A stretch of DNA of 64,000 bases, from IMG/VR virus record IMGVR_UViG_3300027708_000016. One strand, given 5' to 3'. The notes under the pieces are model-generated. The model did not search any database. It worked only from the letters and a program-made list of their open reading frames with translations, and was not told where the DNA came from. A program made the translations under genes and the position numbers. Below, piece after piece: positions 45,621 through 63,889 of the stretch. The stretch comes from a virus (lineage: Duplodnaviria; Caudoviricetes). Each line of letters opens with the position of its first letter. Within the stretch, counting starts at the first letter, position 1.

Positions 45621-45621
45621 A

Positions 45622-47135: not shown

Positions 47136-47741
47136 ATGAACGAAGAAATATGGAAAGACGTAGTAGGTTACGAGGGATATTATGAAGTTTCAAACATGGG
47201 TAACGTAAGATACTTAAAAAGATATAATAAAAAATGCGAACCCCAACTCATGAAAAAATGGACTAGAAATAAATATCCAGCAGTCACCTTCAATATCAAG
47301 AAAAACGGAGATAAAAGAGCAGTACACAGATTGGTAGCAGAATCATTCCTACCAAACCCAGAAAACAAAAAATGCGTCAATCATAAGAATGGAATCAAAT
47401 CAGATAACAGAGTGGAAAACCTAGAATGGTGTACACATTCAGAAAATAATCTCCATGCCTTTCAAACAGGATTACGAATAAATTCTTGGTTAGGTAAGTT
47501 CGGTCCTGAACACAATTGCTATAAGGGAGACATATTGGCATATAAAAATGGTTTACTAGTTTATACACTTAAAGGAAAGAAAAGCATGGATGAATTTGGA
47601 TTATCTTACAATAGCGTTTTAGAGGTTATTAACAAGATACACAAAAAATACAAAGGTTTAATCTTCATAAGACCTTCGGACTATAAGGGAAACATTTCAG
47701 AAATTTCAGAAAGCTTTTCCATCCAAGGTGAACTCTTCTGA
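47136..47741 (+). CDS. NUMOD4-HNH homing endonuclease
   Basis: EIWKDVVGYEGYYEVSNMG; VHRLVAESFLPNP; VNHKNGIKSDNRVENLEWCT.SEN. Confidence 0.93.
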   Translation: MNEEIWKDVVGYEGYYEVSNMGNVRYLKRYNKKCEPQLMKKWTRNKYPAVTFNIKKNGDKRAVHRLVAESFLPNPENKKCVNHKNGIKSDNRVENLEWCTHSENNLHAFQTGLRINSWLGKFGPEHNCYKGDILAYKNGLLVYTLKGKKSMDEFGLSYNSVLEVINKIHKKYKGLIFIRPSDYKGNISEISESFSIQGELF

Positions 47742-47792
47742 AAAACTTCTGAAGACTTGTAACGACTTGTAACGACTTGTAACGACTTGTAA
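47736..47792 (+). repeat. 10-bp tandem array, left border
   Basis: ttctgaaaaac ttctgaagac then (ttgtaacgac)x3; core AACGACTTGT. Confidence 0.9.
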
Positions 47793-47902
47793 AAGAGTCT
47801 TTATAAGAGGTAGCGCACAAACACACCCCCTATAGGGTACTATAAGGAGTACCCCCCTATATTTTGTATACCCCCTATTTCGGGCATTGCCCCCCATATC
47901 AT

Positions 47903-48059
47903 CGTCTTACGCAAAGGGGTCTATGGGGCATTTTTACGGAGGGGTTCTGCGTCTTACGCACTCCGAAAATCCGAGGGCGTTTTAATGAGACGCTGTTGAT
48001 CGTCTTACGCATCGTAGCAACAGGGGCAAAAAGAAACCCGACCCATTTCTGGATCGGGT
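47903..48059 (-). promoter_or_regulatory. Three direct CGTCTTACGC copies + final intrinsic terminator
   Basis: Copies at 47903, 47950, 48001; hairpin ACCCGA..TCGGGT with T-tract on minus strand. Confidence 0.85.
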
Positions 48060-48079
48060 GACTCTTGGAGTTGGATCGA

Positions 48080-48259
48080 CTACTTCTTCTTTGCCTTGGT
48101 GGGTTTGGCTTGGGCTTCGACCATGTCGAGGATGGTGGATAGTCCTCTGATGCACAGGTCACTCATGTTGAGTTCTGGGTGGGCATCGGTGATTGCCTTG
48201 AGACGGATCTTCACATCGACAGGGCAACGGAAGGTGATGGAGGTGTTACGAGCTTGCAT
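48080..48259 (-). CDS. Ribbon-helix-helix (CopG/Arc-like) DNA-binding protein
   Basis: Beta-strand SITFRC, helix PVDVKIRLKAIT, helix NMSDLCIRGL; basic tail; start refined. Confidence 0.7.
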   Translation of the reverse strand: MQARNTSITFRCPVDVKIRLKAITDAHPELNMSDLCIRGLSTILDMVEAQAKPTKAKKK

Positions 48260-48299
48260 TGTTTTGTTTGTGGTGAGGAGGTTGTGCCTCACGAAAGAC

Positions 48300-48469
48300 A
48301 TACTAGGGAACTGCCCTACTCCGTGCAACTACAATCGTGGGAATCTTTGCGTAAGACGCTCATACTATTCTTGGTCTGGGTATCAGCGTCTTACGCAGCA
48401 GTCTGGGGCAACGGGTTGGTGGAGTCATCGGTGCAGAAAAAAACCCCGACCCATTTCTGGATCGGGGTT
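48300..48469 (-). promoter_or_regulatory. Cassette head 1: terminator - GCGTAAGACG dyad - promoter
   Basis: Dyad 48349/48387 (28-nt gap); TTGCAC-17-TAGTAT with -35 20 nt from motif. Confidence 0.85.
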
Positions 48470-48490
48470 GTCTTGGAAGACGCAGTTATA

Positions 48491-48688
48491 TTATCCCATG
48501 ATGGAGCAATACTTCTTGAAGTCTATTACTCCCTTGAGATAGGAAGCGACAGCGACTTGCTGGGCGATGGGGAATCCCATGAGTTCCGCAGCAGTCAGAA
48601 GTTTCCAAGTGGAATACCTCTTTGCACTCTCTTTGGCATCGGTGAGGTTGCCATTGAGAAGGGAGACGATTGTGTTCCTTGGGTTCAT
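48491..48688 (-). CDS. Small hypothetical protein
   Basis: MNPRNTIVSLLNGNLTDAKE... Confidence 0.55.
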   Translation of the reverse strand: MNPRNTIVSLLNGNLTDAKESAKRYSTWKLLTAAELMGFPIAQQVAVASYLKGVIDFKKYCSIMG

Positions 48689-48689
48689 A

Positions 48690-48893
48690 TTACTTGGAGA
48701 CGAAGGGTGTTTGTGCGAAGGAGACATCGTTCCAATGGAAGGAGACGCATCCCCATGAGTTAGCTTCAAAGAAAGCGGCATGGTGGACAACGGATTGATG
48801 TTGCCAGTAGAGGCTAGTAGCGAGGCAGTCCATCACGCAGATGATGCTGATGGTGAGGATGAGGAGGAGTGTTTCGTAGGTGGATGCTTTCAT
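48690..48893 (-). CDS. Small membrane protein
   Basis: N-terminal TM helix. Confidence 0.55.
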   Translation of the reverse strand: MKASTYETLLLILTISIICVMDCLATSLYWQHQSVVHHAAFFEANSWGCVSFHWNDVSFAQTPFVSK

Positions 48894-48931
48894 TTTAGTG
48901 GGTGGTGAGGAGGTTGTGCCTCACGAGTTAG

Positions 48932-49096
48932 AAGGTAGTGAAAGACGATGGAGGATGCAACAAGAATCGTGGGAATCTTTGCGTAAGACGCTGATATTTG
49001 TCAGGGGTATTAGCGTCTTACGCAGCAGTCTGGGGATGACGGATTTGTTGTCGAGGCACAAAAAAACCCCTACCACTCCGAAGAGCAGTAGGGGTT
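48932..49096 (-). promoter_or_regulatory. Cassette head 2
   Basis: Dyad 48981/49014; TTGCAT-17-TACCTT, 20 nt from motif; terminator about 49060-49096. Confidence 0.8.
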
Positions 49097-49114
49097 CCCC
49101 CTCTACTAAAAGTT

Positions 49115-49456
49115 TTAGGCGACTCCGAGGAGGTATTCCAGTTGAGCCATATACTTGTATGGGACGATGAATGCCCATCCTCCCTCGTGATGAGCATACC
49201 CGACTACTCGCACACCCGAAGCCTTGAAGAGGTTCGTGACGCAGACAAAGGAGTTATTGTCCATAGGGCAGATAACTCGCTTGTTGTTTCCCTGTTGAAG
49301 GGTGATGTATGCAGTTCCCAGTTCGCTCACGCCTGTCTTGGCAGTGACGATGATTCGTGCGTTTGGATCTCCGAAGAGATTGTAGTTCCTTCGCTTGCCA
49401 CCCATGTTCCAGTTGAGGATGGAATCATTGATGGTGTTGTTGTTGTATTGGTTCAT
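49115..49456 (-). CDS. Hypothetical protein
   Basis: Start refined to MNQYNN downstream of promoter and leader. Confidence 0.6.
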   Translation of the reverse strand: MNQYNNNTINDSILNWNMGGKRRNYNLFGDPNARIIVTAKTGVSELGTAYITLQQGNNKRVICPMDNNSFVCVTNLFKASGVRVVGYAHHEGGWAFIVPYKYMAQLEYLLGVA

Positions 49457-49493
49457 TTTAGTGGAGGTGAGAGGGTTGTTTCTCACGAATTGG

Positions 49494-49728
49494 ACTATGC
49501 AGGAAAGTGTGAGGCAGGGCAAGAAAAAAGTTTGGGATCTTTTGCGTAAGACGCTGATAGCTCCAAGGATTTTCAATGCGTAAGACGCTGAATCATAACC
49601 AGAAATCTTTTGCGTAAGACGTTGATATCCAAAACATTACTGGGTATTAGCGTCTTACGCAGCAGTCTGGGGGGTCGCCTAACATCCGAAAAAGACACAA
49701 AAAAAACCCCCACCTTTCGGTGAGGGTT
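49494..49728 (-). promoter_or_regulatory. Cassette head 3
   Basis: Motifs 49544, 49578, 49612 (+) and 49651 (-); TTGCCC-17-CATAGT; terminator about 49699-49728. Confidence 0.85.
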
Positions 49729-49750
49729 TCTTGGAAGTTAGTTGGCGATG

Positions 49751-49999
49751 TTAGTTAAGTGACTCGACCAGATCCTTGACCAGATCGACCCATGTGACTT
49801 CCGACTCGGTCTCCCAAGGAAGGGGCGCACCATGTTGATCCCAATACATCTGGAGGTAATGCTCCTTGGTCAGGTTGGGGTTTTGTCCGTCTCCGTTGCA
49901 CCAATCTTCGATCTCATTGTAGACCTTGGTTTCCAGTTCTGGCGACATCTGGCAGATGTTGCGACAGGCGATGTGGAACAGGATGGTTTGCTTTGTCAT
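49751..49999 (-). CDS. Hypothetical protein
   Basis: Single-gene cassette. Confidence 0.6.
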   Translation of the reverse strand: MTKQTILFHIACRNICQMSPELETKVYNEIEDWCNGDGQNPNLTKEHYLQMYWDQHGAPLPWETESEVTWVDLVKDLVESLN

Positions 50000-50037
50000 G
50001 GTAGTGGGTGGTGAGGAGGTTGTGCCTCACAGACATC

Positions 50038-50229
50038 AATCTAGCAGGGTCTCTGGACAGGGCAAGAACTTTCTGAAGAATCTTTGCGTAAGACGCTAAA
50101 ACCTTTTTGGGCAAGAGGTTGCGTAAGACGCTGTAAGTGTTATCGTCTTACGCATCGTAATGCGACACCATGTGTTATTGTAACACGCTGTTGTGGGGAA
50201 ACCCTCACCCTATTTCTAGGATGAGGGTT
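50038..50229 (-). promoter_or_regulatory. Cassette head 4
   Basis: Motifs 50086, 50121, 50144; TTGCCC-16-TG.TAGATT; hairpin CCCTCA/TGAGGG. Confidence 0.8.
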
Positions 50230-50255
50230 CTTGCTATCACCCCACTACGAGTAAA

Positions 50256-50516
50256 TTAGTAAAGGTGTGCTGTGGTCTCTGTCACCTTGTTGTTATTGAT
50301 CTTGTGTTCAAACATGATCTCCTTTGCAAACCCCCTCATGATGCAACGAGGTTGGCGTTTCTGTGCGTGAGTTTCAATATCCACTCCATGAGTCTTGACA
50401 TGGTGGACGATATGACAGACCTTCTCCCAGTGCATGGTAAGGACATTGCGACCTTGCTTGACGGACTCTGCCTTGTAGTAGTGGAAGAAGAAGCGTTTTG
50501 GTTTGAGTGTTTTCAT
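50256..50516 (-). CDS. Hypothetical basic protein
   Basis: FFFHYYK...HVKTH...QPRCIMRG. Confidence 0.6.
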   Translation of the reverse strand: MKTLKPKRFFFHYYKAESVKQGRNVLTMHWEKVCHIVHHVKTHGVDIETHAQKRQPRCIMRGFAKEIMFEHKINNNKVTETTAHLY

Positions 50517-50539
50517 AGTGGTTGTTGATTACGATTAAG

Positions 50540-50758
50540 AGAATACAACAAGCCTGTTGAAGTGCAAGAGAAATCTTCAGAAATCTTTTCAATCTTTGCG
50601 TAAGACGTTGATAGTAAATAATTTGCTAATAACAGCGTCTTACGCACGTGGCAGCACCCCGCTGCGGGTGGACACTCGTGGTAATGCGACACCATGTTTT
50701 GTTTTTTCAAAGTGTGCTATAAAAACAAAAGCCTCCCACCCCGAAGGATGGAAGGCTC
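50540..50758 (-). promoter_or_regulatory. Cassette head 5
   Basis: Dyad 50598/50636; TTGCAC -35 is 30 nt from motif; terminator about 50726-50758. Confidence 0.8.
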
Positions 50759-50781
50759 TTGCTGAAGGGTTGGAGGTTAGT

Positions 50782-51771
50782 CTATGCCACTAGAAGAATC
50801 TGTTCACCCCTTGCTTTGACTCTGTTGGTTTCCTTGTCATCGGTGAGAATGGAGAACCAATCCCTCTTGCTCTCACTAGCAGAACCGAACTCACTGGAAA
50901 CATATTGCTTCCAAGGATTCTTGTCTCCCCCAGAGGATTCATGGGAGAAGTAATCGGTTGCTCCACTGAAGAGATCAGCCATAGTCTTTCCCCTGTTGCC
51001 TTTGCCTGTCTTATAGAGATCCACTACCCTGTCCACCATGTTGATAGTGCGAGTTGAAACCTTTGTATCTGCTTCAAAGGTTGGAGGAGTGAGGATACCG
51101 AAGGTGATTTTCCTTGCTGTCTCCTCTTCACAATCCATGCTTTCCATAGAGTCCATTGCCATTTGGAACTCTCTTGTCACTCCATAGTGCCTGTCGATTG
51201 CCTCACTCATGCCATCCAATCTGTTTGCGGCATTCTTTGTGTGCTTGATTCTCATGTTGAACTCTCCTTTACGAGAGAGTGCAAGGGTGAGGGTGTTCTG
51301 ACACACGATGCAGGTGAGACCAGAGTTGGCAATCAGAGCAGAGATACCACCATGACCCCAAGTAATGTTGAGCATATTCTCATGCTCTCTGTTCCCTGCA
51401 ACAATGTTGTCGGAGAGTTTGATGGAAACAAATACCTTTGAACGAGAGCAGACGCTTCCCAAGGAAACTACCTTGTTCTGGGTTCCAATGAGTGCATCCT
51501 TGATCATGGATAGAACCTGTTCGTTGGTGATGAGACAATACTTGTCACTCACTGGATTGCCAATGGGCAGACCATTATCTAGAGAGACAATCTGTTTGAA
51601 GGGAGTCTCCACTTCATTCTCTCCGACCTTATAGGTGAGAGGGAGGGTGATCATGGGATAGGAGATTTCGCAATCCTCGTCGAGTTTGATTTCGGGCTTG
51701 ACCTTGGTGAGTCCGTGCCATGCTTGTTCGATTCCTACCTGTATGTCTGTGTCTTCAATCATGTGTGCCAT
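50782..51771 (-). CDS. DUF932 (TIGR03299 phage/plasmid-like) protein
   Basis: AWHGL, VSDKYCLITN, LGSVCSRSKVFV, VCQNTL, IKHT.NA, ATDYFSHE; start refined to MAHM. Confidence 0.8.
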   Translation of the reverse strand: MAHMIEDTDIQVGIEQAWHGLTKVKPEIKLDEDCEISYPMITLPLTYKVGENEVETPFKQIVSLDNGLPIGNPVSDKYCLITNEQVLSMIKDALIGTQNKVVSLGSVCSRSKVFVSIKLSDNIVAGNREHENMLNITWGHGGISALIANSGLTCIVCQNTLTLALSRKGEFNMRIKHTKNAANRLDGMSEAIDRHYGVTREFQMAMDSMESMDCEEETARKITFGILTPPTFEADTKVSTRTINMVDRVVDLYKTGKGNRGKTMADLFSGATDYFSHESSGGDKNPWKQYVSSEFGSASESKRDWFSILTDDKETNRVKARGEQILLVA

Positions 51772-51815
51772 CGTTGTGGGTGTCGGTTTGGTCAGTTGAC
51801 TCTTCTGTATTGCTG

Positions 51816-52022
51816 ATAATAGGGAAAACAAATCCATCTGCAAGAAAAATCTTTCAGCTAGGAATAGATTCTTTGCGTAAGACGTTGAAAGTAAATAGAT
51901 GTCCAGATAACAGCGTCTTACGCAGCCATCGAGGGCGGACGGGTTTGGGTGTCGAGTCATCGAGTTTGATCGAGACACAAAAAAAAACCCCCACCTTTCG
52001 GTGAGGGTCTTTGCGTAAGACG
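51816..52022 (-). promoter_or_regulatory. Cassette head 6
   Basis: Dyad 51875/51914, extra motif 52013 abutting terminator; TTGCAG..TATTAT, 31 nt from motif. Confidence 0.85.
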
Positions 52023-52032
52023 CTAGTAGGGT

Positions 52033-52482
52033 CTAGCCTATGGAGATGATGTTATCCATCTGAACCACGAAACAAGGTTTCGGGTTGGGTTTCTTGTTGC
52101 TCTCGGTGAGCATCCCCTGATACTCCTCCTTGGCAACCTCCTTGCCATCCACAAGGTATGTCACCTTGGGTGCTTGGATCACGCCCCCTGTTGCTGGGTA
52201 GAGGCGAAGGTAATCCTTCTCCTTGTGCGTGATGTGGAAAGGGAACTTTGCCCATGTTCCCCAAGGAAGAGGCTCAACTTCCCCCCTCTCCCCACGAGCG
52301 ATTGCCTCCTTCACTTCAGAGAGATTGGCATAATCAATCCCTGCACGAAACGCCCCAGAGGTGATCTTCTCAAGGGTATGCCCCTTGAACTCTTTGGCTG
52401 GCTTGCTCTCCGACTTGAACTCAACATGAACATGCTGTCCAGTGAGTGAACCGACTACCGACATGACTGCTTCTGATTTCAT
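52033..52482 (-). CDS. Conserved phage hypothetical protein
   Basis: RAGIDYANL, LPWGTW, YLRLYP; start refined. Confidence 0.6.
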   Translation of the reverse strand: MKSEAVMSVVGSLTGQHVHVEFKSESKPAKEFKGHTLEKITSGAFRAGIDYANLSEVKEAIARGERGEVEPLPWGTWAKFPFHITHKEKDYLRLYPATGGVIQAPKVTYLVDGKEVAKEEYQGMLTESNKKPNPKPCFVVQMDNIISIG

Positions 52483-52557
52483 CGTAGGTGATGTCTCCAG
52501 TTGTTCGATTGCTCCTGCCCCTCGTAGGTGATGGGTTGAGTCGCTTTCGATATAGTG

Positions 52558-52754
52558 AATGTAGTGGATCAATTCCCAAGGTGCAAGAAAAACCTTCGGA
52601 ATCTTTGCGTAAGACGTTGAAAGTAAAAAGATGTCCGAATAACAGCGTCTTACGCAGTTTCAGGAGGCACGGACGGGTTCAGGGTTAGGTTTCAGGATTG
52701 GATGAAGGCACAAAAAAACCCCCACCGATTTCTCGGTGAGGGTTGCGTAAGACG
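52558..52754 (-). promoter_or_regulatory. Cassette head 7
   Basis: Dyad 52607/52646, extra motif 52745; TTGCAC-17-TACATT, 20 nt from motif. Confidence 0.85.
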
Positions 52755-52762
52755 CTGGGAGT

Positions 52763-53416
52763 CTAGTGTTGCTTGTAATTCACTAGGTAGACATTCTTAT
52801 CCCAACAGGCTCGACATGATCCGCAGACATTCCCTTGTGAGGGTGCAGGGCAGGTATAACCAACAGCAGAGGAAACGCCCGACACTTGAACGCCTAGTCT
52901 TTTTGCGATTGCATCGGGTGTCTTTCCGTCAATCATAAGAGCAGAGAGACGAATGCAGAGATTTTCTGGGATAGTGTTTCCCTCTTTCTCTATGTAGTCG
53001 CTGACGATGGAGTATTCCCTAGTAGGAAGCCAGAACTTGATAAAGGGAAGATTCTTTGCCACTTGGCAAATCTTTTCCAAGTGCCAAGTGCCTTGCAAGT
53101 CTCCGCTATCGTGCCAGCGAAAGAATCCGCTTTTCTCTTTCTTGGAAATCAGAAAGGTGATTGCCTCCGTCCACCTAGGATCTAAAAGGGAGGCAAAACG
53201 CTTTTCCATAGCTTCAATGACATTCTGGAATATGTAACGCCCCTTGCAAGCATAACACTTCTCGCAAACCGAACCGACGATTTTGCGTAGGATGCTTCCG
53301 ATCTTGCAACGAAAAGCAGGGGTGTTGTATGAGTAGCCTGGCATTTTTGAAGGTGCCGACAGGGTGTGAACGATTGCCTCCGCTTGCTTGGCAGTTTTTA
53401 AGGTAGTGGTTGTCAT
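52763..53416 (-). CDS. GP88-like putative Fe-S protein
   Basis: SKMPGYSY, C..G......VCEKCYA, FRWHDSGD, WLPTRE, CPA......CGSCRACW. Confidence 0.8.
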   Translation of the reverse strand: MTTTTLKTAKQAEAIVHTLSAPSKMPGYSYNTPAFRCKIGSILRKIVGSVCEKCYACKGRYIFQNVIEAMEKRFASLLDPRWTEAITFLISKKEKSGFFRWHDSGDLQGTWHLEKICQVAKNLPFIKFWLPTREYSIVSDYIEKEGNTIPENLCIRLSALMIDGKTPDAIAKRLGVQVSGVSSAVGYTCPAPSQGNVCGSCRACWDKNVYLVNYKQH

Positions 53417-53424
53417 AGGGCATC

Positions 53425-53675
53425 AACATAGCAAAGTCGTTGGAGGGTGCAAGAAAAATCTTCGGAATCTTTGCGTAAGACGCTAATACTCCAATCCTAG
53501 AATCCCCCAGAAGGATTCCCCCTACGGGGGAATCCTTTATGCGTAAGACGTTGATAGTAGGATATTTATAAATAACAACGTCTTACGCACAGGTCTGGGG
53601 TTGCCCGTAGTAAGACGAATTCTTACTCATAAGGCAAAGAAAAACCCCTTGAATAGGGAATATGTATTCAAGGGG
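53425..53675 (-). promoter_or_regulatory. Cassette head 8
   Basis: Motifs 53473, 53541, 53579; 12-bp hairpin aaggattccccc/gggggaatcctt between them; TTGCAC..TG.TATGTT, 20 nt from motif. Confidence 0.85.
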
Positions 53676-54539
53676 TAAGGCAAACTCCTACCGACTAGGA
53701 GTTTATGTTGTTTTTCTTCTATGCATTTTCGTCTTCTGGATGTTTTTCCCTGCAATAAGTTGCTACTCCTGCATCATAACCCCACTTGTATTGAATGTGG
53801 GAGATGGCATTCTTTTCTCCATCGTAAGGATTATTCTCTACTCCTTGGATATACCCATCGTTGAAACCACGGACATATGATTTGGTATTTGGGTTTGGGT
53901 GTGTCATAATCCGTGGATCTTGATGTGGTGTTGGATTGCCTCTACCAATTCCTTTAGTTTATTATTTGGAACTGATAGTGCGTGTTCAAACCTTTCATCA
54001 TCATGCCTAATGTTGAAGTTTGTATATTCATCAAATTCTTCGGAGATTTCGATGACAAGATCTTTTTTTTCTTGGTATCCTATATCCATAATGATACTGG
54101 TTTTGATTTTCATTTAGTGTATTATTGGTTGGGTTTGTTTTTTTGTGGTAATGCCGCACCATGTTCTATTAAAACACACTTTGCATTTGAACTTTAGTTT
54201 GTATTGAGAGCTTTGATATCTTTACCCACAGAGAAGGAGATGAGTAAAGAACCCAATACTACAAGCATTGGATACTTTGACCAGTTCTCTTCTTCATGGA
54301 GGGCATCCAATAGATTCTTGATCTTCTGGGTTTGTTGTTTTGTCATATCTTTGTATTGTCCACAACATTGTCAAACTTGTCAAGCAACTCCTGTAGATCA
54401 GGATCGTTGACGTAAACTCTCTCAATGTATTCATAGAGTTCATTTGCTGTATCGATTATATTTATTGTTTTTGTTTGTAGATGAAAGTATTCACGAATCA
54501 TTGCTTTCCTCGTGAGATCTTTGTATTGGAGTTCTGTCA

Positions 54540-55151: not shown

Positions 55152-56652
55152 AGTGTTATTGGGTTGGTTGTTTTGGAGTATTGAATGGTATGATTAAAGG
55201 TTGGTCATTGGCAAGAAGAAAATCTGTAATCATCTGGATTATTTTATTCTTGACTTTATCTTTGCAATGCTCTGGACGAAACTGGATAGTTCTTCTACCT
55301 TGGAAATAATGATTGATTCCGAACTTACCAATATGTTGGTGAACTTCGGTTCTTTTAAATCTTTCCAATTCCTTGGAAGGAAGTTCACCATCTTCAAAGA
55401 TGATTGTCCAATGAACAGATCTTTGTTCATGCAAAGGATCATCAATAAATTCGTGGGAGATTCTTCTGCTATGTATTCTCATTCTGTTGGTATTGGGTAG
55501 GTTTGATTGATAAAGATCTCCACTTCACGATCAAAGGGAGTCATTTGGTTTTTCTTTGCGAAATTGATTCTCACCATATCTCTCTTGATAATGCGAGTCC
55601 ACTTGTTATTGTTCTTCCAACTCTTTCTAGAGTCAATAATCTGATACCATTCCTCGTTAAGATTAGATGTAACAGACGGAGAGATGTTCACATTAAACCA
55701 TCTGTTCTCCTCGCTAAAATGTTTAGCAAGGTTTCCTTGTGCTGGTTTGCTGGTGAAGGTTATCATGATAGTCTCGTATTGTCTTTCATTTGTTGTTGGG
55801 TAGGGTGTCGATTGATTTGAAGGATTGCTCTACTAGTTCATAGAAGTAATACCTGCTGTGCATCAGATCAGTTGTATAGAGATCCTTCATCAAGTCAAGT
55901 GCTTTCTTTTTGTCCTTGGGAATATCTCCTGTCGAGTATAAGTGCTGAAGCATTTCCTTATCACTATACACATGGATAAGGTAATGCGTTGAGTCTCTAG
56001 AAACTTTCTTGGGTTTCTTTGGTTTGGTGGGTTTGGGTTCTTTCATAGTGATCCGTATTTGTTGTAATAGCAACCTACTACAAACAACAGCAATAGGACA
56101 AGCATTATCTGTTCTCGATTTCGGGTAAGACGAGGAAAGTCTTCAAGTGTTTGAAGGCACTTCCAAGGCAGGAATCCAAAGAAAGGAAACCATACTCGGT
56201 TTGCGTAAGACCTTGAACATCATCGTATTCGTATCCATAAAGATTGTGTTCTGTGAAGAAAAGGATGGTAAGAGTTGGAATATGTTTTTGCATTTGTTTT
56301 TTTGTTGAGATGGTTTCTAGGTTGCCCCCCTCTCTTGAACCACTAAGAGAGGGAGGACTTCCCTATGAACTCTATTGAGCCACTACTCTCAATAGATACC
56401 ACCAAATTTATATTATAGGTTTTTAATGATTTGTCAAGAATCTTTGACTATTAGTAAAGATTGTATTTGTAATTTCCGATCTGGTTATTGTTAAACAAAC
56501 GAGTGTGCCAGTTGCTGTGAGTCGTCTCCATGATATGCATGAAGATGAGAGAATTCTTTGGGTTGACTTCCTTTCCGAAGAAACGAAGTAGTAGTGTGAT
56601 TGGATCTTTCATTGGACTTATAGTATGATTGTTTTTGGGTTTGGTGTCAATA

Positions 56653-57234
56653 TCAATCTTTGGATTTCTTTGTAGCGTAAGACTTCCAGATCGTCAAATC
56701 CAAATCGGCAGGAGTCATCTGGTGAATAATTGCTTCTTGCAAGAACAACTTCTCAATCTCTGCGTATTTCTTTTTCGGAGGAGTTGCTTTAGGAATACTC
56801 TTATATCCCTTCTCACTCATCCACTTCAAGATGTGTGTATCAAGCACAGCAACATTGGCATCTGGTCGAGAGTGAAGGATAAAGAAACGAGCAGTCTTTG
56901 ATCCGATACCTTTGATGCTCTCCAGTTGTTCGATGGTGACCTTGGACAAACGACCTTTGAACTTGAGGATCTCCTTGAATGCATGACCGATCCTTTTGTA
57001 TTGACCTAGCTTAAACTCCTTCATCTGGATCTCAAGCCACCCCATGCTAGACAGACGAGAAATAAGAGCAAAGGGTTTGCCTTTCTCCTTATGCATACAA
57101 TGTTTGAGGAAAGCATCTAGCTTCCTTGCCTGTTGCTCTGCTCCTTTGCCAGCAACGAGGATTGCGAACATAAGGAACTCTTCCAGTTCAGCTTCGGTGC
57201 GATTATAGTTGGTGATGGTGGTTGGTGTGATCAT
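56653..57234 (-). CDS. HhH-GPD base-excision DNA glycosylase-like protein
   Basis: LESIKGIGSKTARFF (HhH), VAVLDTHILKW, DLTIW. Confidence 0.85.
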   Translation of the reverse strand: MITPTTITNYNRTEAELEEFLMFAILVAGKGAEQQARKLDAFLKHCMHKEKGKPFALISRLSSMGWLEIQMKEFKLGQYKRIGHAFKEILKFKGRLSKVTIEQLESIKGIGSKTARFFILHSRPDANVAVLDTHILKWMSEKGYKSIPKATPPKKKYAEIEKLFLQEAIIHQMTPADLDLTIWKSYATKKSKD

Positions 57235-57239
57235 AGGTA

Positions 57240-57653
57240 TTAGAAACTAGCGATTGCTTTGATTGTGTCAAGTCTTTTTGATTCGACTTTCCAACTATCT
57301 GTAATTCTCTGGAGAGGAGTATTTGTCAGATGGTCGTATATGATGCCATCAATGATAGCAAAGGCATGACCACGACGACGAACCAAGTAGCGACCAGTTG
57401 GGTATCTTTCAAGGAATTTTTGGATGGTTATAGGTTTGTGTTTCATCTTGCGAAGACTGATACCATGCTTCTTTGCTGTCAAGGCTAATTTTTCGGTATG
57501 AAATCCACGACCAGTTTTTCTTCCTGCGGCTTTTCCTATTTCAAAAGCTTCATTATAGGGAATGCCAGCAGATGTGGACAATGCACAGATGGTGCAGTTG
57601 TTGTTGTCTTTGATACCAGAATCTTTCTCTGGTGTAACTCTGATGTGTTTCAT
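57240..57653 (-). CDS. Conserved phage protein with Cys...His pattern (possible papain-like fold)
   Basis: DNNNCTICALS..., GHAFAIIDG; start refined. Confidence 0.5.
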   Translation of the reverse strand: MKHIRVTPEKDSGIKDNNNCTICALSTSAGIPYNEAFEIGKAAGRKTGRGFHTEKLALTAKKHGISLRKMKHKPITIQKFLERYPTGRYLVRRRGHAFAIIDGIIYDHLTNTPLQRITDSWKVESKRLDTIKAIASF

Positions 57654-57682
57654 TGGTAGTAGTTTGGTTTGGTTTGGAAATA

Positions 57683-57822
57683 TGCCAAGAACTTTCTGCA
57701 CCAACCTTTGCGTAAGACGTTGAAAGTAAAATATATTTAAATAACAACGTCTTACGCAGTTTACGGGCTGCGGCTGCGGGAACCTTTCGAGGCACAAAAA
57801 AACCCGTCGAAATCGACGGGTT
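57683..57822 (-). promoter_or_regulatory. Cassette head 9
   Basis: 13-bp perfect dyad 57710/57748; terminator ACCCGTCG-AAAT-CGACGGGT; promoter weak. Confidence 0.75.
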
Positions 57823-57829
57823 AAAATTG

Positions 57830-57901
57830 TGGGATCGTCGAGACTCGAACTCGAAACCAATTCGTTAAAAGCGAACTGCTCTACCATTGAGCTACGATCC
57901 C
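57830..57901 (-). tRNA. tRNA-Lys(UUU), no encoded CCA
   Basis: GTTCG-CTTTTAA-CGAAT. Confidence 0.92.
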
Positions 57902-58144
57902 ATCGGTATCCTTATATCTTTGGATAAATTGTATTTTTAAGCAATGCCAAAATATCCTCGTTCAATACCTGAAGGAGTATAGGCGCATCAAAAAAAGCAA
58001 AAAGGTGTTCACCAACCAGAAAAACCCTATACTTACCTTTGTATTCATTTTTAAGTTCGACAACGAACTCCTGAGACATTTGACTAGAGATATGTCTTGC
58101 AGTATTCATTTGTCTATTGTAAAGATTTTTTAATTTATTGTCAA

Positions 58145-58219
58145 TGGTGCTTTCAGTAGGAATCGAACCTACATTTGATCTTTAGAAGAGATCAGTCCTA
58201 TCCGTTGAACGATGAAAGC
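58145..58219 (-). tRNA. tRNA-Arg(UCU)
   Basis: GATCT-CTTCTAA-AGATC; CCA. Confidence 0.92.
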
Positions 58220-58227
58220 ATATTGAC

Positions 58228-58300
58228 TGCCCTCGGAGGGATTCGAACCCCCAACCAATCAGTTATGAGCCGACTGCTCTGACCATTGAGCTACAAGGGC
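58228..58300 (-). tRNA. tRNA-CAU (Ile2 or elongator Met)
   Basis: GTCGG-CTCATAA-CTGAT; canonical D- and T-loops. Confidence 0.88.
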
Positions 58301-58823
58301 GAAGGTTCTAAAGTTCTATTGGAATGTCATGGAGTTCTGAACCAATAGGAATGTTTTTATTGTCTGTTCCATTGTTTCCGAACAAGTCATCTGTTGGTTC
58401 AAAGATCCCCCTTTTTGGAGAATAGTAATCATCCTTTGAAGTGATTAGAGATTCAACCCAACTCTCATCTTCCGCCCAAGGGTTGCTCTTTGGAAGATGA
58501 ACCCTGTATGCGTAAGACATAGTTAGGAGAGTAGGAACTCATAAAGGTTTCCAACAATCAGGCGATTGTCATTGGTGATTAGTGCATTCTCCAACTCATC
58601 GTAGAAAATGACTGCTTTGTTTCCACCGATAACAATGTCTGGTAGACCTTCATCGTAGGTTGCATCTCCGTTCCAGTAATCGACTTCAATATCGAAAACT
58701 TTGTTTCCTGCTTCATCGAGAGTATAACCTTGGATGTTTTTTGCTTCCTTGATCTTCTTGACAATCATCTGGGTGTTTGTCAGAAGTTGCTCTCCATCTT
58801 CATCAATTATTGTTGACATTGTA

Positions 58824-59915
58824 TTAGTTCTTCTTTGTGAATTTACCAAGGGCATCCCTCAAGTTGTGGAAGAGAGATCCATCTGGCTTCTTGCCATACT
58901 GGTTGTCATCAGAGTGACAAGATCCACCACAACAAGTTGTCTCCTCGGTTTGAGTGTATCCACACTTCTTGTCAAGGTAATCATTGAAGGTTGGCTCATC
59001 ACAAAGACCAGCATCTTCAACATCCCTGCATGACCCACAACGAGATTTCTCGTAGTCATCATAAGTGTTAGTGAGATCAGTTCCACAGATAGTGCAGAGT
59101 GCTGGCTCATCGTTGTCCTTGTCCTCGTAGTCTCCACCATCGGAGGAGTAGAGATCGGAGTCGAATCCGTTCTCTCCACGACCCAACTTCTCCCTCCAAT
59201 TCTCGGTGTATTCAGCGATCACCTCATACTTGCAAGTGCGACCCTTGGTGTTGTTGTAGTCAGCAGGGATAGCAACTACATCCTTGGGATTGATCTTGAC
59301 GATCATGGTCTTGCCTCCGTTGCTGTCAGAGAAGTGAGGGAGATACTTGATGGAGCAGAAGTGCAAACCATAAGAGCAAGTGCGATCCTTGTCCTCATCC
59401 ACCTTGTAGCGAGGCATCTCACACACCTTGCCAACAGAGTTGTCAAATGATCCAGAGTGAATGTCCTTGTAGTCAGCACGAACATTCTTGAAGGCGAGGA
59501 AGAATCCATCCTCGGTGATAGGCAACTCTCCAACATCAAGGAAGTCATACAACTCATTGACTGCACGATAGGAGGAGTTCTCCATCAAGTTGTAGAGGAA
59601 ATTGAGCAAAGGCTTGAATGGCAAGTCCTGTTGCATGAAGGAGATCACCCTCTTGGTGAGAGTATTGTGAACTGGTTCTCCCTTATAGACGATGATGCCA
59701 TCAAGGATCTGGACATCGGTGTTGAGAACGAAGTCCCTCACCTTACGAGACAGATCGACTGCATCAAGGAAAGCATCCCAATTCTGTGCTTTGACAGCAT
59801 CAAGAGCTTTGGTGTAGTTTGGGTGAGTTTGGTCAATCGTGTAGATTGCCCCGTTGATACAAGCAGAGATTTTTCCCTGTCCTGTAATGGTGACTGCATT
59901 GTTGGTGTTATTCAT
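58824..59915 (-). CDS. rIIB: RIIB-like protein
   Basis: HPNY, FL.NLMEN.S..AV.ELYDFL, PITEDG.FLA.K.V, DNSVG, CS.GLH.CS..Y, K.RTC.YEV. Confidence 0.92.
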   Translation of the reverse strand: MNNTNNAVTITGQGKISACINGAIYTIDQTHPNYTKALDAVKAQNWDAFLDAVDLSRKVRDFVLNTDVQILDGIIVYKGEPVHNTLTKRVISFMQQDLPFKPLLNFLYNLMENSSYRAVNELYDFLDVGELPITEDGFFLAFKNVRADYKDIHSGSFDNSVGKVCEMPRYKVDEDKDRTCSYGLHFCSIKYLPHFSDSNGGKTMIVKINPKDVVAIPADYNNTKGRTCKYEVIAEYTENWREKLGRGENGFDSDLYSSDGGDYEDKDNDEPALCTICGTDLTNTYDDYEKSRCGSCRDVEDAGLCDEPTFNDYLDKKCGYTQTEETTCCGGSCHSDDNQYGKKPDGSLFHNLRDALGKFTKKN

Positions 59916-59953
59916 ATAGTGATACTACTTTGTTTTGTTTGGGTTGTCAATAC

Positions 59954-61936
59954 TTATTTTTCTAGTTTCTTTGCGAGGAGAAGATACATCTGTTGATCGT
60001 CTCCATAAGAACCTAACAGATTAGAGAGAAGGAAGTCAAGTGCTTTATCTGCCATCTTGAAAGTATCTCCCATAACCTTTTGATCCAAGAAGGGAAGAAC
60101 ATTCTGGACTTTCTCATACTTATTACCAAGTGACTTGAGCTTGACAAGCATCTGCTTAATGAGGTTGGAGTCATCAAGGTCTTTATACTCTTTATGAGCA
60201 ACAATGTCATTGATCCTGTGCCTTGCGTAAGACGATATAACCCCTACCTCCTCCATGTCAACCCAAGTAAGGTCATGCTCCCTGTTGAACCATTCAATGA
60301 AGTCTTGACTTCCCCTTGCCTTGAGCTTCTTTGCCTCCTTCTCGGTGACAAGAACAACCTCATTGATATTGATAGTAAATGCTTGACAATAGGTGCGAAG
60401 GCGATCCTTGTCTTGGATCAGGCGAAGATTATTGAGCTTGACATTCAACTCCCATGTCTTTCCCTTGAGAATATAATACTTGGGGATATTTGTGCATGAT
60501 GGTTCGATTGTCCTTGACTCCCAAGAGACATTGTAGGTAGCCCCAATCTCGTAGCAAGTGATGTCCTCTTTAGCCTTGATAACGATTGTTCCGTTCTTGA
60601 GCTTCCTCTTGGCAGTAGGAGAAGGCAAAGAGGAAGCAGATTTGAATACATCGGGGAAACCAACCTCCAACATGGACTGCTTCTGTTCTTGGGTGAACAA
60701 GATAGCACAGGTATCACTTGTATCACGAATGAGCATCTTGATACGAGCAAATGGATTCTTACATCCTCCATCATCGTAATACCATTCAAACTTCTTATCG
60801 AAGCTGAAGGATGTGCTGGTGTTCACCTGCTTCCTGTATGAGTAGCGAGAGAAGGACTGAATAGAAGTCTTGAGAATATCCTTGACAAACTTGTGGGGTT
60901 CACTGATGTCGTAACCTTTATACACGACATCCTTCATCTCAAATGCTTGGTTGCCATAGAAGGAGAACCTCTCTTGGAAAGCTCCTAATGCCCTGATGCT
61001 GTCAAGGATATTATCCTTGGATACGATCTGATCCTTTGCCTTGTGTTTGATCTCTGTCAAGACTTTTTCCATCTTGTCATTGATAGCCTTGATAGTGGCA
61101 TCGTCATAGGAGAGATGCTCACGACTTGGAGCAAAGTCCAACTCACCCATAGCAAACTTGAGAACCACACCCTTGCGAACAATCTGGTTATACTTGTCAG
61201 CAACCTTGTAGTGGTCGATAGGATAGGTGACTCCACCCATGATTGCAAATGCCTCCCATTGTGTAGAGGAATCCAAGAACATCCAATCCTCACCAGAGAA
61301 CATAGGTTTCTCCTCTGACCAATAGCACACTCCACCAGAGGTAGTTGGCTTGACATCGAAGAAACGAAATGCTTTCTGGACTGATTTGATAAACTCATTG
61401 AAGTCTTTCTCCTTGACAGGGATCTGGACAGCAACTCCGTTTGACTCGCTAGTGTTCTCCTGACTCATCAGAGCAATCGTAGGGTTGCCATCTTGAGCAA
61501 AGTAGGCATTGTAGATTCTCTTGACTCCATCATGGATAGAGGTGACAGAGAAGTTGTCCGTATAACAGAAGGGAGACTTTGACCCAAGACCCAAGCATCC
61601 AATCTGATCGTTGGTGTTGGTCTTTGTGGACTCAAAGTAGGTGGAGTAAATGTCGTAGATGTTCTGGTGAGAGATCCCTGTTCCAAAGTCTTGAATGGTG
61701 ATCCAAGGCTCAAGAGAGTTGGGAAGGTGAATATGGAAAGGTTGATCCTTCTTACCAGAGGCAACCATTGAGTCATTAGCGTTGCATCCCAACTCCCTAA
61801 CGATTGCCAGAGGCTTATCGGAGTAGAGGTCAGAGAGGATCTGGAAGGCTTTACGAGAGGACTTCATCTTGAAGGAGGAAGTCTCGGTGATGTTTCCGAT
61901 CTGTTCGATTTGATTAGGTGTGTCGAGTAGTTTCAT
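59954..61936 (-). CDS. rIIA: RIIA-like protein (N-terminal GHKL/HATPase fold)
   Basis: KAFQILSDLYSDKPLAIVRELGCNA.D, QDFGTG, STK..TNDQIG.LGLGSKSPF.YTD; upstream of rIIB. Confidence 0.93.
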   Translation of the reverse strand: MKLLDTPNQIEQIGNITETSSFKMKSSRKAFQILSDLYSDKPLAIVRELGCNANDSMVASGKKDQPFHIHLPNSLEPWITIQDFGTGISHQNIYDIYSTYFESTKTNTNDQIGCLGLGSKSPFCYTDNFSVTSIHDGVKRIYNAYFAQDGNPTIALMSQENTSESNGVAVQIPVKEKDFNEFIKSVQKAFRFFDVKPTTSGGVCYWSEEKPMFSGEDWMFLDSSTQWEAFAIMGGVTYPIDHYKVADKYNQIVRKGVVLKFAMGELDFAPSREHLSYDDATIKAINDKMEKVLTEIKHKAKDQIVSKDNILDSIRALGAFQERFSFYGNQAFEMKDVVYKGYDISEPHKFVKDILKTSIQSFSRYSYRKQVNTSTSFSFDKKFEWYYDDGGCKNPFARIKMLIRDTSDTCAILFTQEQKQSMLEVGFPDVFKSASSLPSPTAKRKLKNGTIVIKAKEDITCYEIGATYNVSWESRTIEPSCTNIPKYYILKGKTWELNVKLNNLRLIQDKDRLRTYCQAFTININEVVLVTEKEAKKLKARGSQDFIEWFNREHDLTWVDMEEVGVISSYARHRINDIVAHKEYKDLDDSNLIKQMLVKLKSLGNKYEKVQNVLPFLDQKVMGDTFKMADKALDFLLSNLLGSYGDDQQMYLLLAKKLEK

Positions 61937-61962
61937 GGGTTGTTTGGTTGGTGTTGAAGATG

Positions 61963-62210
61963 ACAATATACAAAACCATTCCCCATGCAACAAAAATTTT
62001 CACCAACTTTTGCGTAAGACGCTGTTATTAGATGTCCAGTTACCTTGCGTAAGACCTTGAAAGTAGTCATATAATACTAACAACGTCTTACGCAGCGGCG
62101 GATAGAACGCAAATGTTTAGAATTTTTGTTGGTTTGGTTTCTTACATTGTTTTTGAAAGTAATGTAAAAAACAAAAAAAACCCCAACCACCGAGCGAGGT
62201 GATTGGGGTT
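61963..62210 (-). promoter_or_regulatory. Cassette head 10
   Basis: Motifs 62012, 62047 (variant), 62084; TTGCAT..TATTGT, 21 nt from motif; terminator about 62175-62210. Confidence 0.8.
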
Positions 62211-62971
62211 TGCTCTTGCAACCGAATTGTTGCTTATTTCTTCTTCCTATTACAAGTCCACTTACCGAGGCTGTCACGACGATTGTGATAGCGGCACATG
62301 AGCTTCATCTTGCCAAACTGATTGACTGCTCCAAGAAGGCTATACCGAGAAGTATTGATCTCCTCCATGACTACTGCCTTCTTCACATCAGTTGGAAGAG
62401 TATTGAATCCCCCGATATACGAGAAATCTTTAACTACGATTGTGTTATTGGTCATTATTATTTCACCTCCTTTTGTTTGTATTGAAAAATTATCCTACAA
62501 AAGAACCATCCTTGTTCATGGATATGCCCCTTGCCTTTGCTCTCTTGTCAAGTCTCTTGGCACGACAGGTTGCAATCTCTTCCCTCTCCTTTTGTGAAAG
62601 GTTAAGAAGATCATACTTGGTTTCCTTGTCTAGCTTGTGCCAGACGGATTCCGTTTTCATTACATTTTTAGCTCTCCAGATCATTTATATATTATGCACT
62701 AGGTGCGTTAGAATGTCAATAGTATTGTTTTTATTGTTTTAGGGATGGAAGTCCTCTGGAAGTCCATTAGGTAACTGCTCATGCCTCGTCCTCCTCTACT
62801 TCTTCCAAGGTTTCAACCTCGTATTCAGCATTGCCAGATCCCCATAGTGCCTCCATAGCGATTTCAATGGCATTATCGTATGCCTCCTCTTCGTTGTTTG
62901 CCTCCACATCAAAAGACATGGAATCATAGGTTGTGCGAGTGACTTCGACTTTGTATGTTTTCTTCATAGGT

Positions 62972-63313
62972 TTAGGGTTCTAGGTTGATGTAGATTTGCT
63001 CTTTGTTGAGATCCCACAGCATATCGACAAATGCTTTCCATTCCTCCTTGGTGCAAGTATCTATTTCCTCCCCATCCTCATCGTTAATACCAGAAGAGAA
63101 CCACTCATAAGCATCGTCAATGAAACGAGCGAATCTCTCCCCTGCTATCAGAGTCAGATTGTTATCCCCATAGGAGAAATCTGGATTTGCACTCCCTAGC
63201 ATATCCCAGAACCAATCCCATTCCGCAGGGACTAGATCGGTTAGGTCTACTACTTTTACTTCTCTTGGTGTTGGTGTTGTCATGTGTCTAGCTTTTAGTT
63301 GTTCTTCAGCCAT
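62972..63313 (-). CDS. Acidic hypothetical protein
   Basis: D/E/W-rich; FSYGDNNLTL. Confidence 0.6.
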   Translation of the reverse strand: MAEEQLKARHMTTPTPREVKVVDLTDLVPAEWDWFWDMLGSANPDFSYGDNNLTLIAGERFARFIDDAYEWFSSGINDEDGEEIDTCTKEEWKAFVDMLWDLNKEQIYINLEP

Positions 63314-63483
63314 TGGCGAAGAGGTTTGACTCCCAAATCCCCCCTGTGGAAGAGATGGAATGGTTTGGTTGGATCGGAAGGGAACAAGGAGAACTTGTTA
63401 CCCTTACGGACTATTCTGATCCCCCTACTGATAGCAAGATCAATAAGGGAATCAAACTCTTTGGAGTGGTGTTTGCGGCTCAT
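63295..63483 (-). CDS. Small protein with HicA-like (dsRBD-type) pattern
   Basis: LIDLAISRGIRIVRKGNKFSLFP...HRGDLG..PLRQWLK; start refined to ATG at 63483. Confidence 0.4.
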   Translation of the reverse strand: MSRKHHSKEFDSLIDLAISRGIRIVRKGNKFSLFPSDPTKPFHLFHRGDLGVKPLRQWLKNN

Positions 63484-63493
63484 AGCGACTCTC

Positions 63494-63723
63494 ACAATAT
63501 AGAAAACATTCCACAGGTCAAACATTTTTCTGACCTATTTTTGCGTAAGACGTTATTACTAGTGCCGCCAGAAGTTTGCGTAAGACGTTGTTACCCAGAC
63601 AAAGGATTTTACAAAGTCTTTTAACATCTTACAATTACTTGCAATGTCTTCAGATGTCTTCAGAAGTCTTTCGCCTCGGAGCGAATCATTTCTGAAATAT
63701 CCACTATATTTATCGTCTTACGC
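63494..63723 (-). promoter_or_regulatory. Cassette head 11 (first promoter of the module)
   Basis: TTGACC-16-TATTGT, 21 nt from motif 63543; further motifs 63578, 63714. Confidence 0.8.
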
Positions 63724-63807
63724 AAATCTTCAGAAAGCCTTACAACAATTTACAAAATTTTGCCATGCAAGTTTTTGTAAGAATTTGTAGGTTAAACTAA
63801 TTCTAAT

Positions 63808-63889
63808 AAGTCGTTAGAAGTCGTTAGAAGTCGTTAGAAGTCGTTAGAAGTCGTTAGAAGTCGTTAAAAGTCGTTAGAAGTCGTTAGAA
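63808..63889 (+). repeat. 10-bp tandem array, right border
   Basis: (AAGTCGTTAG)x8; reverse complement core AACGACTTCT. Confidence 0.95.

Follow-up and report, generated by a model that had tools for sequence, protein, structure and literature searches.

The right-hand part of a 64,000-nucleotide stretch of viral DNA (IMG/VR record IMGVR_UViG_3300027708_000016; the whole stretch is hereafter called the window) raises the question of why about 16 kb of GC-richer DNA, carrying many small genes of one orientation and dozens of copies of a short repeated site, should be set so sharply within an AT-rich phage genome. An earlier note on this DNA had proposed the block as a first-injected or terminal-repeat region serving host takeover. 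The analysis described here suggests, with a probability of about 0.55, that a ~218-kb freshwater, T4-related myophage has its immediate-early host-takeover region at ~47.77 to ~63.84 kb of the window and that this region forms a direct terminal repeat of ~16.1 kb. DNA of this phage occurs in freshwater and lake metagenomes. The relatedness to T4 was judged from the block, by the presence of rIIA and rIIB among small orphan ORFs.

Depth, borders and codon usage of the block

Depth was taken from five lake metagenomes (X2 to X6) as one k-mer mean per Logan contig, which is not a read depth. The block stood at 1.6-2.2 times its flanks (about 1.9 times) in all five, the left flank being covered in X2 and X3. 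For X2, the left flank had a depth of 19.5, the block contigs 30.6, 35.1, 33.5, 38.5, 32.5, 35.4 and 38.6, and the right flank, a 17.5-kb contig, 17.8. The flanks in X3 were at 15.9 (left) and 14.1 (right), with block contigs at 19-30 rising from the left; most of these were at 25-30 and two short leftmost ones at 19-21. Block and right flank were at 10.8 and 5.33 in X4, 9.67 and 5.23 in X5, and 8.84 and 5.48 in X6. The change in depth fell inside short repeat arrays, at 47763-47783 and 63837-63868. A doubled coverage, which the earlier note had named as a check, was thus found at about 2x in contig k-mer means, with steps near 47.77 and 63.84 kb.

The left border was crossed by an X3 contig corresponding to 44443-48408 and by L039, a contig of the same phage (99.7% identity), and the right border by L012, likewise of the same phage. 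All three carried the same flank as the window, and no alternative flank or junction was present among the loose ends listed. Two junctions without branches, together with about twofold depth, are as expected when a direct terminal repeat is collapsed in assembly; extra junctions would arise from a dispersed duplicate or from an inverted terminal repeat. On contig depth, the block is most likely a collapsed direct terminal repeat of ~16.1 kb that is present twice per virion. A virion end had been placed near 63.9 kb or just beyond; the assemblies run through this point (L012), as is expected of a collapsed repeat, and the contig itself shows no end there.

GC bias was considered as a cause of the depth step and was rejected. 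The 4.7 kb past the right border, taken from L012, include a stretch at 0.43-0.45 GC whose depth was 4.0 in X4 and 4.07 in X6 (4.87 for the spanning contig in X5), against 5.2-5.5 for its AT-rich neighbours. Within the block, contigs of 0.40 GC were as deep as, or deeper than, contigs of 0.49 GC. Since the GC-rich DNA past the border was not raised and the less GC-rich block contigs were just as deep, GC bias is not the cause of the step.

The features of the block that had been noted by eye were borne out by computation. GC content in 2-kb windows was 0.29-0.36 over the first 47 kb of the window, and 0.43-0.49 at 47-54 kb, 0.38-0.41 at 54-59 kb and 0.40-0.45 at 59-64 kb, in agreement with a sharp rise at about 47.7 kb. 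The leftward direction of all credible genes also held, with all 31 ORFs that have a promoter/terminator context or a homolog in relatives, as well as three tRNAs, lying on the minus strand. The 10-bp arrays at the two borders (Table 1) are mutually inverted as had been described, the reverse complement of the left unit, AAGTCGTTAC, matching the right unit at 9/10 positions. Beside the arrays a further inverted match of 27 nt was found (47740-47766 with 63646-63672). The left array has another copy number in the close relative L036, and the right array has ~13 units in the relative L037.

The gene for a homing-type endonuclease lies just outside the block, where it converges on the left array and ends 13 bp short of it. 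HNH genes were also seen within 1-2 kb of the distal border in relatives (on a 9.4-kb contig, and at 13557-14349 of L035). On the inner side of the left array, at the distal end of the block, lies a G-rich element that is kept in this position in three phages with differing operator motifs, and alignment with the same position in L034 and L035 gave 34 invariant columns. This element could be a packaging, replication or end-recognition site. Its make-up of a GGGGGCAATGCCCC hairpin and at least three TATAGGGGG-type units was seen at 47795-47900 in the window, at 11285-11395 in L034 and at 11995-12100 in L035. An Rfam search gave no match at the borders or heads.

The block region was compared in five relatives, namely L030/L034, L032/L035, L036, L037 and L038. 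All have a GC-rich block of ~15 kb in which a large repeat-rich non-coding region is followed by rIIA, rIIB and, at the end, the conserved G-rich element. It is flanked by low-GC DNA on both sides, and the GC content at third codon positions (GC3) is 0.46-0.50 inside it versus 0.25-0.29 outside. The comparison with related contigs that had been suggested as a check therefore showed the bordered block to be kept down to 59% rIIA identity. Phased arrays of the AAAAATTCAG type were found at the proximal border of L030 and L032, and in L032 a Fe_bilin_red gene lies ~7.7 kb past the array. Homologs of rIIA were numerous in metagenomes, several being on scaffolds of 213-227 kb; a scan of IMG/VR with rIIA peptides gave nothing that was confirmed. 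Just past the distal border in L034 (14635-19229), a 986-aa SNF2-family helicase was seen beside a 542-aa protein with a weak ArdC-N domain match. A 544-aa protein of the ArdC-N type (weak match) was seen at 18354-19988 of L035, with no SNF2 gene annotated there.

Codon usage also separated the block from the rest of the window. GC1/GC2/GC3 were 0.473/0.345/0.509 in 31 block genes versus 0.434/0.342/0.223 in 33 outside genes, and the GC excess of the block is almost wholly synonymous. TTA, AGA, AAA, GAA, ATA and GTA were depleted in the block and CTC, ATC, GTC, ACC, TCC, AAG and GAG favoured. The depleted A-ending codons are exactly those read by the 17 tRNAs of the phage itself (anticodons UAA, UCU, UUU, UUC, UAU, UAC and others). 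The shift extends to rIIA and rIIB (GC3 0.53), which marks it as a property of the region rather than as evidence of a foreign source. Most simply, the block would be translated with the tRNA pool of the host before the phage tRNAs are made. Work on phage tRNAs that serve late genes is in line with this reading (e.g. PMC12482277). A GC3 split of this kind (0.51 vs 0.22), kept in relatives and mirroring the tRNA set, would be an unusually clean natural case of temporal codon partitioning and is a possible predictor of early genes in uncultured phages.

Repeated sites, heads and a candidate binder

The motif GCGTAAGAC occurs 38 times in the window, against 0.14 copies expected by chance, with 37 of the copies at 47904-63723. 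The next base is G in 33 of these 37 and another base in four (56203, 56675, 58510 and 62047), which reproduces the earlier count of 33 perfect and 4 near-perfect sites. The statement that the first 47.7 kb held no site was off by one: the single copy outside the block, at 6451, belongs to a perfect TGCGTAAGACG at 6450-6460 on the minus strand. The full conserved site is 17 bp in length, TGCGTAAGACGYTGWTA, with a core of GCGT-N3-ACGC. In the site logo the core is conserved from -1 to +15, with random flanks and loops that are not conserved, which argues for selection on the sequence of the site itself rather than for simple homogenisation of a repeat. A scan of IMG/VR with the 17-bp site returned single chance matches only, apart from L012 of the same phage.

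Eleven intergenic regions, the heads h1 to h11, contain such sites and all follow one plan when read on the minus strand. The intrinsic terminator of the preceding gene is followed by a spacer of 20-60 nt, a distal site and a variable loop. Between one and three proximal sites, oppositely oriented, come next, and after them a stretch rich in A/T and a promoter; the distal and proximal sites of a head form a convergent dyad. The promoters are sigma70-like, with a -35 region near TTGCAC, a spacer of 16-17 nt and a -10 region of TAnnnT. The proximal site ends 20-21 nt upstream of the -35 region in nine heads and 30-31 nt upstream of it in two. This difference is one helical turn, so that the sites lie on the same face of the helix with their centre near -60 or -70. 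The layout of h11 was likewise present in L030, L032 and L037.

A number of smaller observations concern the heads and sites. A 5' hairpin, GTGAGGCACAACCTCCTCAC, which contains an anti-Shine-Dalgarno-like CCUCC, occurs on the minus strand in the four most distal cassettes (48271-48300, 48905-48930, 49468-49490 and 50011-50035). The start codons of these four cassettes have A-rich leaders without a Shine-Dalgarno sequence; the ORF at 62234-62455, by contrast, has a strong one, AAGGAGGTG. Solitary sites lie at 52013, 52745, 56203, 56675, 58510 and 60225. Two of these adjoin terminator stems and may be half-heads left by recombination, and four lie within coding sequence, rIIA included, a number far above that expected by chance of a 9-mer over 16 kb. 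A paired motif of the TAACATGGTGT / ACACCATGTT type recurs in intergenic DNA of the phage and its relatives, both in and out of the block (50158-50195 and 50683-50700 in the window; ~4490-4540 in L012; 7175-7215 and 7519-7570 in L030; 7275-7325 in L032).

The sequence of the site differs among the relatives. L037 (rIIA 83% identical) has 20 sites of GCGTAAGAC and none in 7.8 kb outside the block, and L036, whose rIIA is off the contig, also uses GCGTAAGAC and has an 88% identical copy of the predicted ribbon-helix-helix (RHH) protein described below. L030/L034 (rIIA 78%) carry TTGGGYRAA-N19-TTYRCCCAA, L032/L035 (rIIA 72%) TTATGCA-N21-TGCATAA and L038 (rIIA 59%) TTATACAAA. Other dyads, of TTGGGYRAA, TTATGCAAA and TTATACAAA, are thus found in the same architecture, with the dyad of the relatives lying ~18-21 nt upstream of a TTGCAT or TTGACA -35 region. 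Because the architecture is kept and the recognised sequence is replaced, a pair of phage-encoded regulator and operator is to be expected, and a host factor less so.

Differences in gene content were located at the same places. L036 has a Zn-ribbon ORF in place of the ORF at 49751-49999 and no counterpart of the ORF at 48690-48893, with break points in heads. Such cassette differences at heads fit shuffling of the type known for promoter-early stem-loops (PeSLs). L039 was seen to have ~355 bp (571-925) unmatched in the window, beside the three-site head h3, the rest being 99.7% identical over 4.7 kb; this difference is population variation at a head.

The best candidate for a binder of the 17-bp site, and no more than a candidate, is a 59-aa protein with a predicted RHH fold that is encoded by the last cassette gene of the block. 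Its AlphaFold (AF2) monomer model (predicted local distance difference test, pLDDT, 71) has an extended N-terminus and two helices (H14-26 and H32-50). When this model was aligned exhaustively to 48,161 PDB representatives, the top ~30 matches were nearly all RHH proteins with Z 4.4-5.8, among them CopA_SO, the omega repressor, ParD, TacA, PrpA, PutA, TraM, Arc and AmrZ. Foldseek gave only weak matches (E above 2), which were nevertheless RHH proteins. The protein matched no Pfam or PHROG family, and in libraries of 5.8 billion and 1.8 billion proteins no homolog was found beyond its own sub-lineage. The gene has a head of its own with three more sites after it. All phages in which it was detected share the motif of the window, and two phages with other dyads, whose blocks are complete, lack it. 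It is its own head, the three following sites and its absence from phages with other dyads that make this gene the best candidate.

Interpretation and alternatives

It is suggested that the block would be expressed by host RNA polymerase with host tRNAs before phage tRNAs become available. Its double dose and its terminal position, whichever end enters first, would give early entry and high expression. Cutting or nicking, and duplication of the repeat in the course of packaging, may take place at the two-fold-symmetric arrays, in the way proposed for T7-type repeats. The 17-bp sites would be operators for a fast-evolving, phage-encoded regulator that contacts RNA polymerase from about -60, and the predicted RHH protein, or another lineage-specific factor, might bind them and modulate all eleven promoters together. 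By analogy with the omega repressor, such a protein would bind direct and inverted repeats cooperatively. The effect could be a feedback shut-off of the early promoters, to which superinfecting phages of the same type would likewise be subject. As to the sign of regulation, there is a slight lean towards shut-off over activation, because replacement of the motif between close relatives is the outcome of selection against cross-silencing. The repeated heads may in addition serve as PeSL-type recombination points for the swapping of cassettes.

A bolder version of this interpretation is doubtful at present. It holds that a T4-related lytic lineage might keep its whole pre-early programme in an exact 16-kb terminal repeat, with symmetric 10-bp arrays as its cutting points and a codon usage recast for host tRNAs. 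The pair of operator and small regulator would then be particular to each sub-lineage and evolve in the manner of an immunity region, a resident phage silencing the early genes of a superinfector of its own type and not those of other types.

A number of points weigh against the proposal of an early region within a direct terminal repeat and its regulator. Headful packaging with circular permutation is what would be expected of phages of the T4 type, and the depths come from per-contig k-mer means of Logan contigs and not from reads. The left border shows a lower ratio in X2 (1.57) and a gradual rise in X3. An inverted array was not found at the distal border of the relatives in a 9-mer search. 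Of the eight metatranscriptome contigs listed, seven fall within the block; since the block makes up 80% of the stretch covered, they are uninformative on timing. For the predicted RHH protein, no relatives could be detected by sequence, the confidence of the model is medium, and a single sub-lineage provides the link to the motif. Finally, sites placed upstream of the -35 region suit an activator at least as well as a repressor.

Three other explanations bear on the raised depth. The genome could be packaged by headful as in T4, with the extra depth coming from an identical copy of the block on a second co-occurring element, be it a different strain or phage, an excised or amplified form, or a defective particle. 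Headful packaging is favoured a priori for T4-related terminases, related strains occur in the same samples (many contigs being 85-99% identical), cassettes move between relatives, and contigs break at the arrays, where a branch is possible. This explanation is nevertheless considered unlikely, as the ratio stays at 1.6-2.2 throughout five samples whose absolute depth differs about fourfold, no second flanks (at least 85% identity) add depth outside the block, no alternative junction appears among the loose ends listed, and three independent assemblies join the block to the same flanks. Packaging might instead start at a pac site in the 8-unit right array, with one headful per start and ~7% redundancy over the same 16 kb, with one border sharp, the other fuzzy and no exact repeat formed. 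Small terminase subunits typically bind repeat arrays, and the right step is sharp in all five runs while the left one has the weaknesses just described; the raised depth, however, ends on the left at the left array, the shift in GC and codon usage and the last terminator, none of which a headful cut has reason to respect, and this possibility is considered decidedly improbable. The block could also be a recently acquired foreign island or mobile element with terminal inverted repeats, or an assembly chimera, with the depth excess due to GC bias, as a sharp compositional step bracketed by inverted repeats and an abutting homing endonuclease gene might suggest. Four relatives, down to 59% rIIA identity, nonetheless keep the block, its position and its GC3 offset, and rIIA and rIIB, which are vertically inherited, are part of what is kept; no gene for a transposase or integrase was seen, both borders are spanned by independent assemblies, and GC-rich DNA outside the block is not raised in depth. 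On the evidence of the relatives and the independent contigs, a chimera or foreign island was rejected as hardly credible.

A further explanation concerns the sites. A host transcription factor, exploited by the phage as a class I type activator, could bind them, relatives differing in site because they differ in host. A site that is centred near -60 or -70 and phased by one helical turn has the classic class I geometry of CRP-type promoters, and a pre-existing factor would answer the question of what activates at time zero. Phages with 78-83% identical rIIA from similar lake samples use unrelated dyads, however, and the block holds a motif-specific predicted RHH gene with its own head and extra sites, which leaves the host factor as a possibility of lower probability than a phage-encoded regulator.

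Gene content and comparison with known systems

The features of the block are listed in Table 1. rIIA and rIIB are its two largest ORFs; the likely start of rIIA is the ATG at 61936, giving 660 aa against 659 aa in homologs, and the closest cultured rIIA proteins, those of KVP40-like Vibrio phages, are ~31% identical. Between heads h1 and h8 there are five orphan ORFs, the DUF932 gene, an ORF for a 149-aa orphan and the GP88 gene. A by-eye resemblance of the 62-aa product of the first gene to HicA was dropped, as the protein gave no Pfam, PHROG or PDB sequence match. Searches of Pfam and the PHROGs placed essentially none of the ~20 small ORFs of the block in a family, and these orphans among the early genes are candidate takeover and anti-defence factors. 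The block had no match among 50,697 phage records in a megablast search.

Table 1. Coordinates of features in and beside the block (positions in the window)
Feature	Position	Strand	Details
Homing-type endonuclease gene (HNH_3 + NUMOD4)	47136-47741	+	Pfam HNH_3 1.7e-13, NUMOD4 6.6e-11
Left border array	47754-47792		GACTTGTAAC x3.9; depth step here
G-rich distal element	47795-47900	-	GGGGGCAATGCCCC hairpin, then repeated TATAGGGGG units
Three direct copies of the site	47904-48010	-	Downstream of last terminator
Last cassette gene, 59-aa orphan	48080-48259	-	Candidate site binder
Heads h1-h8 alternating with single genes	48260-53665	-	
DUF932 gene	50782-51771	-	
GP88 gene	52763-53416	-	
Lower-GC run of 12 ORFs	53719-57653	-	Few sites
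Api92-like gene	54540-55151	-	Ferredoxin-like protein
Ogg-HhH gene	56653-57234	-	Glycosylase-like
Head h9	57654-57830	-	
tRNA-Lys(UUU), tRNA-Arg(UCU), tRNA-Met(CAU)	57829-58300	-	65-aa ORF between
rIIB	58824-59915	-	PHROG 609 8.9e-78; Pfam Phage_T4_rIIB on orthologs of relatives
rIIA	59954-61936	-	PHROG 612 6.4e-120
Head h10, before rIIA	61937-62215	-	Terminator, one distal and two proximal sites, TTGCAT-16-TATTGT
First five genes of the block	62234-63483	-	
First gene of the block, 62 aa	63295-63483	-	Kept in all relatives, 31-90% identity
Proximal control region, head h11	63484-63807	-	Three sites, TTCGC-N4-GCGAA hairpin, TTCAGAA-type repeats, TTGACC-16-TATTGT
Right border array	63808-63889		AAGTCGTTAG x8.2; depth step here

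Outside the block the window carries a ribonucleotide reductase gene, 14 more tRNAs and a tmRNA. The tmRNA is full-length (22808-23258, minus strand; Rfam RF00023, 84.9 bits) and is located in the tRNA cluster between tRNA-Ala and tRNA-Val. It should also be noted that a long tandem repeat with an 18-nt period and ~18 copies, as well as 96-nt super-repeats, lies at 34434-34813 inside the ORF at 34226-35428, the N-terminus of whose product matches an HNH endonuclease PHROG.

Among known systems, phage T7 has short repeat arrays (SRL and SRR) that flank a terminal repeat of 160 bp. The present block resembles it in having short repeat arrays at both borders of what would be a direct terminal repeat, and differs in the 10-bp period, in the mutual inversion of the arrays, in the distal array not being conserved in relatives and in the ~16-kb length of the repeat. 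The Bacillus phage SPO1 has its host-takeover module in a 13-kb terminal redundancy, and T5 and BF23 have their pre-early genes in 10-kb terminal repeats. A long terminal repeat with many small early genes mostly of one direction, strong promoters for the host polymerase and terminators is common to these phages and to the proposed layout. The backbone here is T4-related, in contrast, and the block includes rIIA and rIIB, ordinary early genes in the permuted genome of T4; no homology to SPO1 or T5 genes was found for the block proteins, and for the T5 pre-early genes A1, A2 and dmp there was no PHROG or Pfam match among 30 of them. The equivalence to the T5 and SPO1 regions that the earlier note had proposed therefore stands for an early-type region with many promoters and terminators and about twofold depth, and not for T5 gene content; the resemblance to first-step-transfer DNA is one of layout only. 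The terminal repeats of BF23 have been described (PMC10644984).

The jumbo phage PA5oct is a further case. This large myophage, tied to T4-like viruses in gene-sharing networks, has a direct terminal repeat (DTR) of 39 kb with 105 genes, many of them highly transcribed early (PMC7318152). The long DTR of early genes is the point of likeness. Its repeat was found from read coverage and termini after circular assembly, with the termini determined by PhageTerm and long reads, whereas here contig depth alone was used. No operator code or codon split was reported in the sections of its description that were consulted (PMC7318152). T4-type phages are the textbook example of permuted, headful-packaged genomes; if the reading of the block is true, a fixed long repeat with rIIA, rIIB and takeover genes would mean that the layout of T5, SPO1 and PA5oct arose on a T4-related backbone too.

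For the candidate regulator the nearest comparison is with the omega repressor of pSM19035 and other RHH regulators (PDB 1irq, 2bnw; Arc, CopG). Omega was among the best structural matches of the 59-aa model (Z 5.6-5.7), and both cases would involve a small RHH protein, here predicted, and arrays of short direct and inverted repeats upstream of several promoters. The two differ in that there is no sequence similarity, that the site here is one of 17 bp with a GCGT-N3-ACGC core and not a 7-bp heptad, and that its copies are 24-40 bp apart and not contiguous, with binding being a prediction.

The architecture of the heads is closest to that of the PeSLs, cassettes in the hyperplastic regions of T4-like phages (Arbiol et al. 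2010, PMC2839356; Comeau et al. 2014, PMC4122927). In both, a sigma70-like early promoter and a start codon directly follow a stem-loop or terminator, and this arrangement, found here in 11 heads, is repeated among small variable ORFs of a T4-related genome. Cassettes are gained, lost or replaced between close relatives, and the indels and replacements relative to L036 and L039 map to heads, as in PeSL cassettes. The form of the -35 and -10 regions also resembles the KVP40/nt-1 consensus, TTGYVH-N17-TAWWAT. The claim that the regulatory architecture was not recognisable from any described phage was thus overstated, as it consists of PeSL-type terminator-promoter cassettes (PMC2839356, PMC4122927) to which an operator dyad is added. 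The difference from PeSLs lies in a strictly conserved 17-bp site between terminator and promoter, arranged in convergent dyads with extra direct copies and helically phased, in the wholesale replacement of its sequence between relatives, and in the setting within one GC3-shifted block of double depth. What appears to be new is that these elements are combined on a T4-related backbone, that the GC3 split is so large and so well conserved, that the operator code is interchangeable, and that the border arrays are inverted. With the operator swapped and the geometry of the promoter kept, these phages offer a tractable system for the study of how regulators and their sites diversify in lytic phages.

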